A stretch of 64,000 nucleotides of DNA from Dictyostelium discoideum (lineage: Eukaryota): contig CM000151.3 of the NCBI GenBank assembly GCA_000004695.1, forward strand, positions 2,112,001 through 2,176,000. The letters run 5' to 3'. Position numbers and translations under genes: made by a program. This document shows positions 36,504-42,359 of the stretch, piece after piece (positions within the stretch are counted from its first letter, which is position 1; each line of letters begins with the position of its first letter). The notes beneath the pieces are model-generated. The model had not been told where the DNA came from and made no database searches. It saw nothing but the letters and a program-made list of their open reading frames with translations.

Positions 36504-38108
36504 ATGAATTTTAAAAGGTTGATTACAACATCTTTTACAAATCAAATAAAAAATATGAAATTTAAAAAAACAATTAGTTTTAAACCATTTGATATTAATA
36601 ATCGAATTATTTATGATAAAGAACCTACAATAGTTTTTAAAGATCAAAAATCATGTTTGTTAAAAGATACAATTTCAACAACACTTGAAGATGGTAGTAA
36701 GGAATTAAAAATAAAAATTGGGAGATTTACACCAGGTTTAGATTCAAATAATAATTATATTTCATCAGATATCTTTGAAATTAATATTAACAATTATTCA
36801 AATAAAATTGATTTATGTTTGGTAAGTTTAAAATTTTATATATACATATATTTTATTTAAACAAATAAACAAACAATTTAGCAATACAATTATTGTTAAC
36901 AATCAAAACAATCAAAAAAAAATTACAATCAAATAATAAACAAAACATTAAAAAAACAATATATAACAAATCCATCCAAACAATCTATCAAGTAAATATT
37001 GTTTATTTTTTTTTTTTTTTTAGTTTACACTTTTGATTTGTTTTTTTTTGTTTGGTTGGTTATTCATCTTTTTTATTAAAGATTATTAATAAATTTTATA
37101 TTAGAATGGTAAAAATCCAACATTTTTAAGAAGAAAAGGAAAAATACCGACTAAAGTTAAAAATTGGGAACAATTATTAGGAGAACAATTGGAAATTAGA
37201 AAATCAGTCACTTTGGAAGATGGTGATATAATATCTTTTTTAGGTTTAAATGGTACAACTTCTTCAATACAATTTACAATTGAAGAAGATAATGAAAATG
37301 AAAAAGAAAAAGAAAAAGAAATGGAACTTGATAACGATAATACAAATACAGAATCAATTCCACCAATAACATCAAAATCAACATCAACATCAACATCACT
37401 TATAGATACAAATAAAATTCAATTGAAAAAACATTTTGAAGATCCAAATTCAAAGAATGTAGGTCTTTCAGCATTAGTTTATTTTTGTAATAAACCAGAA
37501 TCATTTCTAGATGTTGTTTTATATTATGATGATAAAACAGTTGCGGTACTTGATAAATATCCAAAAGCAAAACATCATTATTTAGTAATACCAAGAGTTG
37601 AAATCAATACATTGGATGAATTAACACCTTCTTTCATTCCAATGTTAGAACATATGTATAATGTTGCTGATGCAATTATAAATGAAATAATTTCAAAAGA
37701 TAATGATGACGATAATTTAAAAAAATCAGATTTCAAATTAGGTTTTCATGCAATACCATCAATGAAAAGACTTCATCTTCATATTATCTCAAATGACTAT
37801 AATACTAAATATTTAAAAAATAATAAACACTGGAATTCTTTTACTACTGAATTTTATATTCCTTTTGATAAAATCTTAAATGAATTAAAATCAAATGGTA
37901 AAGTTAAAGTAAGTATAAAAAAAAAAATAAAAAAAAATAAAAAAAAACTAATTCACTAAACAAATTATTATTTTAGATTGATCAAGTAAAATATAATTCA
38001 ATATTAAGTCAAATAAAAAAATGTCCAATTTGTAAAGAAGAAAATAAAAATTTAGAAAATTTAAAAGACCATTATAAAAAATGTTTAGAAAAATTTAAAT
38101 CTAAATAA
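36504..38108 (+). CDS. aptx: Aprataxin-like: FHA-like domain + HIT domain + C-terminal C2H2-type zinc finger; 3 exons (36504..36821, 37105..37908, 37977..38108)
   Basis: Exon 1/2 FHA-like (...NGKNPTFLRRKGKIPTKVKNWEQLLGEQLEIRKSVTLEDGDIISFLG). HIT motif HLHIISNDY with upstream KAKHHYLVIPR. Exon 3 IDQVKYNSILSQIKKCPICKEENKNLENLKDHYKKCLEKFKSK*. Introns GTAAGT...TTAG, phase 0. Confidence 0.85.
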
Positions 38109-38156
38109 ATAAATAAAAAATATAGATTTTATATACAAAAAAATTTAAATTTATTT

Positions 38157-39857
38157 TTATTTTTTATAATCCAATAAAATTACTGGATTGAAATTTTCAG
38201 TTTCATAATTGAAAACAAATTTAACTAATTTTAAACTATTTAGATGTTGCTTATTTTTATCGATTAATGATTGATACGGTTGAATCATATCGGGTCTACC
38301 ATTAACTTCAACTATACTGACAGAAAAATCAGTGATAGTTTTATTTTGTTCTAAAATTCTCTCTATTAATTGTGGACAGTTAATACTTGTAACAAATGAT
38401 TCCATTGATGTGCTTGATGAAATTAGTGATGAAAATCTTTCAATAAATGTTTTTGGTGATTGTTCACATAGTATTTGAGATGCTTGACATTGACCTGATA
38501 ATCGTAAACTTTTTAGGGTTTTATTATTTTTCAAGGCTTCTTTTAAAGAGTCCCAATTTTTATTGAATTCCTCATTCACTTCCATTGAATTTGAAGGATT
38601 TCTAATTAAACTATCACAATTACATTTTTTAATTTTTGATTTCTTTCTTTCAGTTTTTGTCGATAAATAATATATTAAATTATTATAACAAATACTAACT
38701 ACAAGCTGACTTACTTTCTTTGAATAATTTAAAATTAATTCTAAATCTTTTAATGAAACTTCCATTGAAGATATTTCTAAAAATTCTATATTTTCTAAAA
38801 AATTAATTTTTTCATTATATTTCTTATTTTCTTCATTATTATTATTATTATTATTATTATTATTATTATTATTATTATTATTATTATTATTATTATTATT
38901 ATTATTATTATTATTATTATTAAAAGGTATAATACCAGCTAACATTGGAAATTGTATTTTATCTTGTTGAGAAGTATAATTTATAATGGATAAATGAGCA
39001 ATTGAATTTTTATATTGTTTAAATGATTCGATAATGAGTTCATTATCTAAACATGAATTAATTTTCAAAGTAAGTACCTTTTTAACATGTTTTTTTATTT
39101 TATTTAAAGATTTAAATGTAAAAATTGGATTTAAATCTAATTCTAATAGATGAATATTACCATCAGTCGCTTCACATCGATAAAGTGATTGTAAAATATC
39201 AGTAATTTCAGTCTCGTTTGATGATGATATATTTCTTAATATTAAGTTTTTAAATATAATTGTTTGTTGTTGTTGTTGTTGTTGTTGTTTTTGATTTTCT
39301 AATAATGATAAAGTTGATGGTATGGTTGTTTTTAATTTTGATAATTTTTCTAATTCTTTATTAACTATATCCAATTCTATTATTTTTTCACCAGATTTAT
39401 TATATGATGGTATTTTATCTTTAATATCTTTAATATAAAAGAATGAACCTTGATGATCGAAATGTAATTTCAATGTTTTTAAATTCTCTTTTTTAATTAT
39501 TGAATATTTTAAATCAATGTCATTTTTATTATTATTATTATTATTATTATTATTATTATTATTATTATTATTATTATTATTATTATTATTATTATTATTA
39601 TTATTATTATTATTATTATTATTATTATGATTTAAATTTGTATAATTAAAATCAACTGATACAGTTAAATTATTTGATAAAGTTTTAAACCAATCTTGTG
39701 ATACTAATGCCAATGTTAACATTAATCTTTTAATTTGACTTTCATTCCCTCTATAGTCATCAATAACACAATTAATTGATTTATTATTTTTATCTATATA
39801 TCTACATAAAATTTTAATTATATATTTTTGAATATATAATGGTAATAACACAACCAT
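38157..39857 (-). CDS. F-box-like/LRR-like protein with two long poly-Asn tracts (566 aa); duplicated unit copy A
   Basis: ATG confirmed. N-terminus LPLYIQKYIIKILCRYI (F-box-like). Repeated L-x-x-L-x-L leucine-rich C-terminal half. 36-N and 33-N tracts from (ATT)n. Confidence 0.6.
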   Translation of the reverse strand: MVVLLPLYIQKYIIKILCRYIDKNNKSINCVIDDYRGNESQIKRLMLTLALVSQDWFKTLSNNLTVSVDFNYTNLNHNNNNNNNNNNNNNNNNNNNNNNNNNNNNNNNNNKNDIDLKYSIIKKENLKTLKLHFDHQGSFFYIKDIKDKIPSYNKSGEKIIELDIVNKELEKLSKLKTTIPSTLSLLENQKQQQQQQQQTIIFKNLILRNISSSNETEITDILQSLYRCEATDGNIHLLELDLNPIFTFKSLNKIKKHVKKVLTLKINSCLDNELIIESFKQYKNSIAHLSIINYTSQQDKIQFPMLAGIIPFNNNNNNNNNNNNNNNNNNNNNNNNNNNNNEENKKYNEKINFLENIEFLEISSMEVSLKDLELILNYSKKVSQLVVSICYNNLIYYLSTKTERKKSKIKKCNCDSLIRNPSNSMEVNEEFNKNWDSLKEALKNNKTLKSLRLSGQCQASQILCEQSPKTFIERFSSLISSSTSMESFVTSINCPQLIERILEQNKTITDFSVSIVEVNGRPDMIQPYQSLIDKNKQHLNSLKLVKFVFNYETENFNPVILLDYKK

Positions 39858-40262: not shown

Positions 40263-40301
40263 AAATATGGATTTTATATACAAAAAAATTTAAATTTATT
40301 T

Positions 40302-41897
40302 TTATTTTTTATAATCCAATAAAATTACTGGATTGAAATTTTCAGTTTCATAATTGAAAACAAATTTAACTAATTTTAAACTATTTAGATGTTGCTTATT
40401 TTTATCGATTAATGATTGATACGGTTGAATCATATCGGGTCTACCATTAACTTCAACTATACTGACAGAAAAATCAGTGATAGTTTTATTTTGTTCTAAA
40501 ATTCTCTCTATTAATTGTGGACAGTTAATACCTGTACCAAATGATTCCATTGATGTGCTTGATGAAATTAGTGATGAAAATCTTTCAATAAATGTTTTTG
40601 ATGGTGATTGTTTACATAGTAGTATTTGAGATGCATAACATTCATGAAAGAATTCTAAACTTTTTAGGGTTTTATTATTTTTCAAGGCTTCTTTTAAGAG
40701 TCCAATTTTATTGAATTCCTCATTCACTTCCATTGAATTTGAAGGATTCTTATTTCACTTATCACAATTACATTTTTTAATTTTTGATTTCTTTCTTTCA
40801 GTTTTTGTCGATAAATAATATATTAAATTATTAAAACAAATACTAATTACAAGCTGACTTACTTTCTTTGAATAATTTAAAATTAATTCTAAATCTTTTA
40901 ATGAAACTTCCATTGAAAATATTTTTAAAAATTCTATATTTTCTAAATAATTAATTTTTTCATTATATTTCTTATTTTCTTCATTATTATTATTATTAAA
41001 AGGTATAATACCAGCTAATATTGGAAATAATTGCATTTTATCTTGTTGAGAAGTATATTTTATAATGAATAATTGAGCAATTGAATTTTTATATTGTTTA
41101 AATGATTCGATAATGAGTTCATTATCAAAACATGAATTAATTTTCAAAGTAAATACCTTTTTAACATGTTTTTTTATTTTATTTAAAGATTTAAATGTAA
41201 AAATTGGATTTAAATCTAATTCTAATAGATGAATATTACCATCAGTCGCTTCACATCGATAAAGTGATTGTAAAATATCAGTATCTTCAGTCTCGTTTGA
41301 TGATGATATATTTCTTAATATTAAGTTTTTAAATATAATTGTTTGTTGTTGTTGTTGTTGTTTTTGATTTTCTAATAATGATAAAGTTGATGGTATGGTT
41401 GTTTTTAATTTTGATAATTTTTCTAATTCTTTATTAACTATATCCAATTCTATTATTTTTTCATCAGATTTATCGTCATCAAAAATATCATTATCTTTTG
41501 GTGATTGTTTTTTATCTTTTTCATAAATACTAATATCTTTAATATAAAAGAATGAACCTTGATGATCGAAATGTAATTTCAATGTTTTTAAATTCTCTTT
41601 TTTAATTATTGAATATTTTAAATCAATGTCATTTTTATTATTATTATTATTATTATTATTTTTATTATGATTTAAATTTGTATAATTAAAATCAACTGAT
41701 ACAGTTAAATTATTTGATAAAGTTTTAAACCAATCTTGAGATACTAATGCCAATGTTAACATTAATCTTTTAATTTGACTTTCATTCCCTCTATAGTCAC
41801 CACCAACATAATCAATTGATTTATTATTTTTATCTATATATCTACATAAAATTTTAATTATATATTTTTGAATATATAATGGTAATAACACAACCAT
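40302..41897 (-). pseudogene. Copy B of the F-box/LRR-like gene: split into two ORFs by a 1-nt deletion near 40745, poly-N tracts collapsed to 8 and 5 Asn, extra small indel (SIYEKDKKQSPKDNDIFDDDKSD insertion)
   Basis: ORFs 40755..41897 and 40302..40733 are each about 90% identical to parts of 38157..39857. The frameshift shows at ...AATTTGAAGGATTCTTATTTCACTTATCAC vs copy A ...AATTTGAAGGATTTCTAATTAAACTATCAC. Confidence 0.6.
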
Positions 41898-42359
41898 TGT
41901 TGCTTTAAATTTGTAAAAAAATTAAAATATTAAAATTTTTTTTTTTATTATTGGCTGTTAATAAAAAAAAAAAAGAAAAAAAAAAAGAAAAAAATAAAAC
42001 AAATTAAAATAAAATGAAAAATAAAAAAAAAAAAAAAAAAAAATTAAATAAAAAAAAAAAAAAAAAAAATAAATTGTTATGTTTTTCTTAAAATTTTAAA
42101 TATCATGGGGTTTGAAAATAGATTTTTTAAAATTCCAGATTTAAAAAAACTTAATTTGAAATAGAAAAAATAAGGTGGATGGATGTAAAAAGTTCAGAAT
42201 TAAAGTGGAAAAGTAAGTTCTAAACGTTTTTATTTACTGGTCGCAGCCCCCCTTTATAAAAAAAAAAAAAATACAAACATGTACAATTTTTTTTTTTTTT
42301 TTTTTTTTAATAAACTAAAAAAAATGAAAAAAATAATTATTTTATGTTTATTATATTTT

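Follow-up and report, generated by a model that had tools for sequence, protein, structure and literature searches.

A young tandem duplication of a predicted leucine-rich-repeat gene in Dictyostelium discoideum, with one conservative and one fast-evolving copy

Introduction

When a gene has recently been copied in tandem and one of the copies carries a stop codon, which of the two has kept the ancestral function? This question is raised by a locus of Dictyostelium discoideum that lies in a stretch of 64,000 nucleotides (assembly GCA_000004695.1, contig CM000151.3, positions 2,112,001 to 2,176,000 of the forward strand), hereafter called the window, whose numbering is used throughout. An earlier note on this DNA had described a 2.2-kb tandem segmental duplication that takes in the last exon of an aprataxin gene together with a convergent gene, called F-box/leucine-rich-repeat (LRR)-like, and its promoter. 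The duplication lies where the note had placed it, with near-identical coordinates. The fates assigned to the two gene copies, with the distal copy B decaying and the proximal copy A the sound one, turned out to be the wrong way round, as copy B is the conservative copy and copy A the changing one.

The window has a G+C content of about 20%, long AAT and CAA tracts and a gene content that matches D. discoideum, and it is identical to the AX4 reference record at a diagnostic patch of copy B. Three loci were compared with it. The first, from assembly GCA_054883475.1 (D. discoideum, Nanopore plus Illumina; hereafter L001), aligns to positions 30276-51916 of the window at 99.7% identity (21.6 kb). 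The second, from GCA_054859355.1 (L005), is labelled D. discoideum and belongs to a diverged isolate, about 91-95% identical, which served as the single-copy comparator. The third is the D. firmibasis locus (L002), which served as the outgroup. Nanopore plus Illumina assemblies of AX2-214 and nine wild isolates were reported by Holland et al. 2025 (PMC12745789), who described every wild isolate of the discoideum clade as diverged from AX4. By elimination from that report, L001 is most plausibly AX2-214, and L005 would be one of CR116C, OT3A, M4B and S6B. Homology searches were hampered by the asparagine (Asn) tracts of the locus. Searches of the window for tRNA genes and Rfam families, as targets or landmarks, found none; a look-up of the neighboring 205-amino acid (aa) gene for further strains returned only the same assembly, and a literature search on the gene identifiers found no paper.

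Results

A tandem duplication present in two assemblies

Local alignment of unit A with unit B (Table 1) placed 1932 nt in 23 blocks with 97.3% identity, far beyond chance; 52 aligned positions differ, and there are many insertions or deletions (indels). The units are arranged head-to-tail. In both, the LRR gene lies on the minus strand, convergent with the aprataxin-like gene, and is accompanied by some 220 nt of A-rich sequence upstream of it. The first homologous base, 37911, directly follows the donor GT (37909-37910) of intron 2 in the aprataxin-like gene; thus, both the content that had been proposed for the duplication and its start within 2 nt of the donor held up. The right flank after unit B is ancestral and matches the single-copy strain L005.

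The L001 assembly carries the identical two-copy arrangement with the same junction, and the genes called there, of 532 and 566 aa, lie beside a gene with HIT and zf-C2HE domains. At the syntenic site, flanked by the aprataxin-like gene and a WD40 gene, L005 has a single 584-aa gene, and D. firmibasis likewise has one gene there. Because the gene is single-copy in both L005 and D. firmibasis, the duplication arose after the split from the L005 lineage. Because L001 has the same structure as the window, the duplication is real and not an assembly artefact.

Table 1 Features of the duplicated locus. Positions are those of the window; strand is given where it was recorded.
Feature	Positions	Strand	Description
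Duplication unit A (proximal)	37911-40091		2181 nt including the 17-nt junction filler; homology ends at 40074; from the alignment and L001. Contains intron 2 (minus its first two bases), functional zinc-finger exon, LRR copy A, A-rich upstream region
Duplication unit B (distal)	40092-42075		1984 nt; intron remnant, truncated zinc-finger pseudo-exon, LRR copy B, upstream region
A/B junction	40071-40097	+	AATT (microhomology), CACAAATTTGGGT (templated filler), CGCC, AAGTAT (unit B start)
Donor site of the junction insert	35328-35355	+	Inside the acyltransferase (Acyl_transf_3) coding sequence: AATTCACAAATTTGGGT TGTTC AAGTAG
LRR (F-box-like) gene, copy A	38157-39857	-	Intact 566-aa open reading frame; identical called gene in L001
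Copy A complex patch 1	39387-39422	-	KDKIPSYNKSG (11 codons) for ancestral 23 codons (SIYEKDKKQSPKDNDIFDDDKSD); low-confidence loop
Copy A complex patch 2	38478-38510	-	LRLSGQCQ for ancestral LEFFHECY; predicted beta-strand
Copy A Asn tract 1	39528-39626	-	Pure (AAT)33; AAA interruption of copy B and the single-copy strain lost
Copy A Asn tract 2	38835-38921	-	Pure (AAT)29
Copy B Asn tracts			Tract 1 AAT AAA (AAT)8; tract 2 (AAT)5
L005 Asn tracts			Tract 1 about 52 Asn codons with AAC interruptions; tract 2 (AAT)9 ATT AAT
D. firmibasis Asn tracts			Tract 1 short; tract 2 short and impure
LRR gene, copy B (AX4 DDB_G0273011)	40302-41897	-	Ancestral type; single TGA in the window; intact 532 aa in L001
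Patch with all 7 window-versus-L001 differences of the 4.2-kb duplicated region	40696-40759	-	64 bp
"Intron" of AX4 model DDB_G0273011	40749-40850	-	102 nt, in-frame GT..AG; skips the TGA
Aprataxin-like FHA-HIT-zinc-finger gene (AX4 DDB_G0272839)	36555-38108	+	Exons 36555-36821, 37105-37908, 37977-38108; introns 36822-37104, 37909-37976
Zinc-finger pseudo-exon (unit B)	40169-40261	+	Acceptor kept; no upstream donor, no exon 1 or 2

The junction contains a copy of a third site

The unit A homology ends with ...ATAAATT at 40074, and unit B opens with AAGTAT at 40092; the 17 nt that separate them, CACAAATTTGGGTCGCC, are not present in the single-copy genomes. Part of this filler, together with the preceding AATT (40071-40087), is exactly identical over 17 nt to 35328-35344, in the neighboring acyltransferase gene. 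Beyond the match there are 4-5 divergent bases and then, at both places, AAGTA, which are the first 5 nt of unit B. The site in the acyltransferase gene is ancestral, as L005 has the identical sequence and D. firmibasis a conserved one. The 13-mer was found in 0 of 100 shuffles, and of 600 matched control windows only 1 (0.17%) had a non-repetitive stretch of 17 nt or more in common with its surroundings (+-6 kb).

On the simplest reading, the junction points to two microhomology-guided template switches, by fork stalling and template switching or microhomology-mediated break-induced replication (FoSTeS/MMBIR) or by templated insertion of the polymerase-theta type. A nascent DNA end at the promoter-side end of the segment would have switched template twice: once through the 4-nt microhomology AATT to the acyltransferase site 4.7 kb back, where about 13-18 nt would have been copied, and again through the 5-nt microhomology AAGTA to intron 2, after which the segment would have been replicated a second time. 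The identity and flanks of the insert can be read off directly; the order of events and the enzymes are what we infer from them. Unit B would start 2 nt inside the intron because the donor consensus GTAAGTA supplied the AAGTA microhomology, so that the position of the breakpoint near an exon boundary appears mechanistic and unrelated to splicing.

Duplications ascribed to FoSTeS/MMBIR or to polymerase-theta-type end joining are alike in being head-to-tail and of kilobase scale, in carrying a short insert from a site a few kb away, in showing 4-5 nt of microhomology per switch point and in having an imperfectly copied insert. Unlike the characterized systems, the present case is read from a single junction.

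An RNA-mediated origin, by retroposition, was also considered, prompted by the boundary 2 nt from a splice donor. It was rejected because the arrangement is strictly tandem, the promoter of the antisense gene is included, and the AAGTA microhomology and templated insert explain the boundary.

Copy B is intact in the L001 assembly

Copy B had been described as frameshifted by a 1-nt deletion and split into two open reading frames (ORFs). This is not the case: it spans 1596 nt, a multiple of three, and forms one frame with no net shift and a single in-frame TGA (40755-40757), and its ORF is intact in L001. Across the 21.6 kb, the window and L001 show 27 differences; those of the duplicated region all fall in the 64-bp patch listed in Table 1, and the remaining 4.1 kb of that region is identical. 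In coding orientation, the window reads AATAAAATTGGACTCTTAAAAG where copy B of L001 and both A copies read AATAAAAATTGGGACTCTTTAAAAG; three adjacent homopolymers are thus each one base short in the window (AAAAA>AAAA, GGG>GG, TTT>TT; net -3). At the stop, the window reads GATAAGTGAAATAAGAATCC and copy B of L001 reads GATAGTGTAATTAGAAATCC, a change that comprises one extra A, two T>A and one missing A (+1/-1) and produces the TGA. The window-type sequences compared in the 40650-40800 region were GATAAGTGAAATAAG and AAAATTGGACTCTTAAAAG, and those of the clean type were GATAGTGTAATTAGAAATCC and AAAAATTGGGACTCTTTAAAAG. The clean version encodes CDSVIRNPSNS...NKNWDSLKEAL, in agreement with copy A, L005 and D. 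firmibasis (NWESLKEA). Indeed, the window is the odd one out at all 7 of these differences and at every other informative difference between it and L001.

The stop that makes copy B look dead is quite probably a cluster of base-call errors in the Sanger AX4 reference, for which a coverage of 8x has been given (PMC12745789). Measured rates in D. discoideum are 2.47e-11 substitutions and 4.93e-11 indels per site per generation (PMC7466956), so low that laboratory strains derived from NC4 should show next to no true differences in a stretch of 21 kb. On the B lineage there are only 3 derived coding changes, every diagnostic site of copy B agrees with the single-copy gene, and omega between copy B and the single-copy gene of L005 is 0.15. 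Copy B therefore does not appear to be under relaxed constraint, and the comparison shows what looks like a conservative copy that has kept the ancestral protein with an intact ORF.

The earlier note had allowed that the break in copy B might prove to be an intron, and the AX4 model DDB_G0273011 does contain one: removing its 102 nt from copy B of the window gives exactly the AX4 protein (P0002). A real intron was nevertheless rejected on conservation and base composition, as the segment is conserved as coding sequence in copy A, in copy B of L001, in L005 and in L002, and has an AT content of 83%, versus 79% for the coding sequence and 90% for the real neighboring intron. The "intron" is best read as an annotation workaround that hides the stop. 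We also rejected the idea that copy B of L001 had been made A-like by gene conversion or by a polishing artefact, because it keeps a B-specific G (AGTGTA, versus AGTTTA in copy A) that is also found in copy B of the window.

Exact look-up of the 380-aa and 143-aa truncated products of copy B in public assemblies found none on record; this result is uninformative, and the same kind of look-up with the exact AX4 protein P0002 found no contig on record.

A second cluster of differences between the window and L001 lies in intergenic DNA at 33053-33700 and comprises 7 substitutions plus 4 indels over some 650 bp. Here, the window is unique wherever L005 is informative (e.g., CCC for CAC; GG for GT or GC), and the cluster probably reflects further base-call errors in the reference. 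Two regions, 33130-33180 and 50545-50600, share a similar upstream-like motif (...AATATGAA.TTT.GT.TA.A.AAATA.AAC[C/A]CTC...), and both copies of the motif show the same C-versus-A difference between the assemblies. This repeated discrepancy could be a systematic sequencing artefact of one technology.

The duplicated gene encodes a predicted LRR protein

The family to which the duplicated gene belongs is small and lineage-restricted, with only 38 relatives found by a profile search of 1.84 billion representative proteins. Ten family members had no match in Pfam, and the family profile had none among PDB sequences. However, the AlphaFold2 model of the intact B protein (pLDDT, the predicted local distance difference test, 68; pTM, the predicted template modeling score, 0.69) consists of three N-terminal helices followed by regular strand-helix repeats. 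Foldseek matched this model to COI1, TIR1, MAX2/D3, SKP2, FBXL17 and the LRR domains of NLR proteins, which supports the prediction of an LRR fold (RNI/FBXL-type solenoid). No F-box was matched by Pfam on the N-termini, even at E<=10. When hhalign was run against six canonical F-box sequences, it aligned only LVSxDWFKTL with VCKRWxxL (probability 8%, P=0.004). Of the name F-box/LRR-like, the LRR part is thus retained, on predicted structure, while an F-box is not demonstrated by either method.

The D. firmibasis model RB653_010291 (P0003, 497 aa) is N-terminally truncated. Its ORF really starts at L002:9869 and reaches 132 nt further upstream to MVILPLYIQKYIIKILCRYID..., which matches the conserved N-terminus of the family (L002:9869-10000).

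Copy A has changed rapidly with its reading frame intact

When polarized with L005 as the outgroup, 43 derived nucleotide changes fall in copy A and 3 in copy B (p=5e-10). In codons, the A lineage has 31 nonsynonymous changes versus 1 synonymous change, to be compared with a published neutral ratio of 3.32 (PMC7466956). The Nei-Gojobori estimate of omega between A and B is 1.86, or 5.55 without two complex patches in copy A, and that between either copy and D. firmibasis is 0.22-0.26. Since AT-rich codon usage can distort such estimates, the changes were also randomized over the ancestral sequence with their spectrum kept. For 43 changes, 8.9 synonymous changes and 3.1 stops were expected, and 1 (P=0.0003) and 0 (P=0.03), respectively, were observed. 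Outside the two patches, 4.5 of 22 changes were expected to be synonymous and none was (P=0.004).

The roughly 200 nt of alignable noncoding flank contain only 2 substitutions, both B-derived. The neutral divergence, noncoding and synonymous, is therefore about 0.4% per lineage, compared with 3.3% at the nonsynonymous sites of copy A; it amounts to about a ninth of the distance to the L005 lineage (synonymous divergence, dS, 0.07-0.08). Copy A thus appears, from these counts, to be an ORF that is kept under selection while its protein changes rapidly.

Both complex patches of copy A are real, as they are present in both assemblies. At patch 1, a 23-codon insertion had been ascribed to copy B; the difference is instead one of 23 ancestral codons in B versus 11 different codons in A, the longer form being ancestral because it is common to the single-copy strain and resembles D. 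firmibasis. In patch 2, a 2-nt deletion is compensated by a 2-nt insertion, and about 7 bases of 24 are substituted. A search for nearby templates of the two patches found only matches of 10-12 nt, which are consistent with chance. That all indels are in-frame was at one point taken as a sign of selection; this argument was dropped because indels of 3n are common in mutation-accumulation lines (PMC7466956) and so prove little.

On the AlphaFold2 model, the amino acid substitutions of copy A are enriched in predicted strands (11/31, versus 19% expected; p=0.023), and the length differences between A and B all fall in low-confidence loops. The substitutions are often paired at a spacing of i/i+2 (Q275H/F277S, K325E/F327S and G455V/G457S), and three of them are from Phe to Ser. 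Strand changes at i/i+2 are a known pattern of LRR recognition surfaces under diversifying selection. We interpret these observations as possible positive selection on copy A for a new binding specificity, i.e., neofunctionalization. The proximal copy has taken almost all of the changes, and nearly every one alters an amino acid; they are enriched in the predicted LRR beta-strands, and its length changes are confined to predicted loops.

The 566-aa copy A protein was not found among AX4 proteins by exact look-up or homology search, and the identical L001 protein is also missing from the collection, although its gene is called in that assembly. AX4 may lack an annotation for copy A, or low-complexity proteins of this sort may be left out of the collection.

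Asparagine tracts differ between the copies

Asn tracts that are long and vary in length are nothing unusual in D. discoideum, in which Asn or Gln tracts of 20 residues or longer number more than 2,900 (Scala et al. 2012, PMC3460934). Two Asn tracts differ in length between copies A and B. Their lengths had been given as 36 and 33 residues in A and 8 and 5 in B, of which the latter pair was right and the former should read 33 and 29. Whether A had expanded or B had contracted had been left unclear. For tract 2, the comparison with the single-copy relatives settles this in favor of an A-specific expansion of about 20-24 codons (5-9 -> 29). For tract 1, the direction cannot be polarized, because the single-copy relative has about 52 Asn there. 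Tract 1 is unstable irrespective of the duplication. The gene of L005 (L005:11623-13377) has the longest tract 1 seen, yet is B-like everywhere else.

As in other coding (AAT)n variation of D. discoideum (PMC3460934; Kucukyildirim et al. 2020, PMC7466956), the tracts are of pure AAT with about 30 units, are highly variable in length between close relatives and lie in predicted disordered loops. In contrast to the usual case, the variation here can be dated against the duplication and is partly polarized, with tract 2 expanded in A. In tract 1, the loss of the AAA interruption goes with the long pure tract of copy A.

The aprataxin-like gene and its duplicated exon

The neighbor of the duplicated gene had been identified as aprataxin. 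Splicing its three exons gives exactly the annotated 400-aa protein (P0032), in which Pfam detects DcpS_C (E=5e-29) and HIT (2e-13); zf-C2HE is on record for the annotated proteins of 399 and 400 aa. The sources name DDB_G0272839 / Q558W0 "HIT domain-containing protein" and "putative FHA-HIT", and the best non-dictyostelid matches are named aprataxin. As judged from its HIT-superfamily domain and C2HE zinc finger, with the FHA domain taken from the source name, the gene belongs to the aprataxin family, and the identification stands. So does the proposed third, zinc-finger exon, even though the AX4 protein omits it: Q558W0 (390 aa; P0031) runs through the intron-2 donor and ends ...VKVSIKKKIKKNKKKLIH, without the C2HE exon. 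The newer 400-aa annotation splices to 37977 and so includes it.

The copy of this exon in unit B keeps the CPIC half of the finger. The H..C half is gone through the loss of 43 nt between two AAAAATTTA repeats (38046-38054 and 38089-38097 in unit A), which supports a microhomology-type deletion, and there is a separate 4-nt slip in an (AAAT)n run. A microhomology deletion of 47 bp had been proposed; its type is thus upheld and its size corrected. Lacking the upstream exons, the duplicated exon decayed through this 43-nt deletion.

Other repeated and G+C-rich sequences

Between the upstream region of copy B and the 3' end of the WD40 gene, the segment 42098-42326 contains unusually G+C-rich islets, e.g., GGTCGCAGCCCCCC. 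It is conserved in the diverged isolate L005, gave no BLAST alignment to D. firmibasis and has no Rfam or tRNA match. Elsewhere, 48216-48779 and 11050-11587 share long imperfect coding repeats of the triplet type, one of these regions being in a single-exon 596-aa gene that adjoins a CfaA_B_C gene. The same repeats also occur at two places in the D. firmibasis locus (BLAST identities 70-92%).

Discussion

We conclude that the D. discoideum lineage leading to the NC4-derived laboratory strains acquired a tandem duplication of a 2.16-kb segment, and we regard the explanation developed here, taken as a whole, as probable. The event itself is young, of an ordinary kind and well resolved, and involves no new kind of biology. 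Its well-resolved outcome is a young tandem duplicate of a lineage-restricted LRR gene, with a dead exon fragment between a conservative and a fast-evolving copy.

Four other explanations have to be weighed, two of them concerning the origin of the duplication. An expanded repeat produced during assembly had been named as a possible refutation, and there is next to no chance of it: beyond the usual difficulty of assembling AT-rich repeats nothing speaks for it, the units are set apart by 52 mismatches in aligned sequence and numerous indels, and the structure, the junction and the copy-specific differences are common to the Sanger and the Nanopore plus Illumina assemblies, which rules the artefact out. 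Unequal crossing-over (non-allelic homologous recombination) between the A-rich intron tract and the A-rich promoter tract would account for the fact that both breakpoints adjoin long A-rich low-complexity tracts. It is highly improbable as the origin, however, because the junction lies outside the A-tracts and joins unique sequence to AAGTAT, and because such an exchange would not yield an insert with a 17-nt exact copy of a third locus.

The other two concern the fates of the copies. The stop and the small indels might be true mutations, in which case copy B would be a pseudogene in decay and copy A would be the functional gene. The window does contain the in-frame TGA and two scrambled patches, the AX4 record P0002 has the same "IGLL" patch, so that the lesions are in the deposited reference and not in the window alone, and complex compensated patches do occur at this locus. 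Nevertheless, we judge this unlikely. An independent assembly, identical in the other 4.1 kb of the duplicated region, has copy B unbroken; among the lesions are three neighboring homopolymers, each called one base short; the copy has only 3 derived coding changes and a long-term omega of 0.15; and seven independent mutations in 64 bp are implausible between laboratory strains at about 1e-10 per site per generation. The excess of changes in copy A, for its part, might be non-adaptive, owing either to relaxed constraint or to a mutational burst during error-prone break-induced or template-switch synthesis. Replicative template switching is a mutagenic process, the junction indicates that it took place, and the two multi-nucleotide patches of copy A look like single complex events. 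Moreover, indels of 3n arise often in D. discoideum also in the absence of selection (PMC7466956). Such a burst should, however, give about 20% synonymous changes and about 3 stops among 43, and 1 and 0 were seen (P=0.0003 and P=0.03); the synonymous deficit persists outside the patches (0/22, P=0.004), not one derived substitution is seen in the roughly 200 nt of noncoding flank in unit A, and the changes are enriched in predicted strands. We therefore consider a non-adaptive excess rather unlikely.

It should be noted that several points weigh against our own conclusions. The assignment of L001 to AX2-214 was made by elimination; if L001 were a different, very close isolate, the lesions of copy B could be real and private to AX3/AX4. 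Both window-specific patches restore the frame, which for random base-call errors has a chance of about 1 in 9, and the compensated-frameshift patch of copy A, being in both assemblies, means that complex events do occur at this locus. At the junction, CGCC differs from the TGTTC of the donor site, which implies inexact copying or a later mutation of the junction. The case for positive selection is built on few synonymous sites and one close outgroup, with the changes treated as independent, and the structural argument on a medium-confidence model (pLDDT 68).

The locus resembles several known situations. Apparent pseudogenes and false introns due to reference errors likewise have a stop in a short patch of homopolymer miscalls that is hidden by an in-frame GT..AG "intron", and here the adjoining gene model also lacks its last exon. 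Unlike errors proven at the level of reads, this probable one was recognized by comparing assemblies, and a real lesion private to AX3/AX4 retains a modest chance, perhaps somewhat below one quarter. The pair also resembles LRR families that evolve by birth and death (plant R genes and F-box/LRR genes; tgr of Dictyostelium, PMC12745789) in being a young tandem pair with strongly asymmetric divergence and a nonsynonymous excess concentrated in LRR strands, often at alternating positions. Unlike those families, its own family is without a Pfam match, a known ligand or a demonstrated F-box; unlike large LRR arrays, it has two copies only, and the evidence of selection comes from a single branch.

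Tentatively, and as a possibility that we hold to be somewhat less than even, copy A may be a newly arising substrate- or ligand-recognition protein whose LRR face has been remodeled by strong positive selection after the duplication and in which, over the same period, two loop Asn tracts have grown long and pure. The remodeling would include the three Phe-to-Ser changes, which fall at equivalent strand positions of successive repeats in the model.

For the AX4 reference, these results suggest two corrections: DDB_G0273011 is probably an intact 532-aa gene, its stop and 102-nt "intron" being likely artefacts, and the AX4 protein of DDB_G0272839 is missing a third exon, the one with the zinc finger. 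The locus also provides a clean junction for a Dictyostelium tandem duplication that appears to have arisen by template switching with a templated insert, and a mundane explanation for a breakpoint that had seemed tied to a splice site. In addition, it offers a paralogue pair in which early divergence can be followed, one copy being ancestral and the other having a 31:1 excess of amino acid changes and an Asn expansion of about 24 codons at a neutral divergence of about 0.4% per lineage. If the proposed selection on copy A is true, the pair would amount to a natural before-and-after experiment, in a genetically tractable amoeba, on LRR specificity and on the speed of (AAT)n expansion, with the ancestral state kept next door in copy B and in the single-copy relatives.

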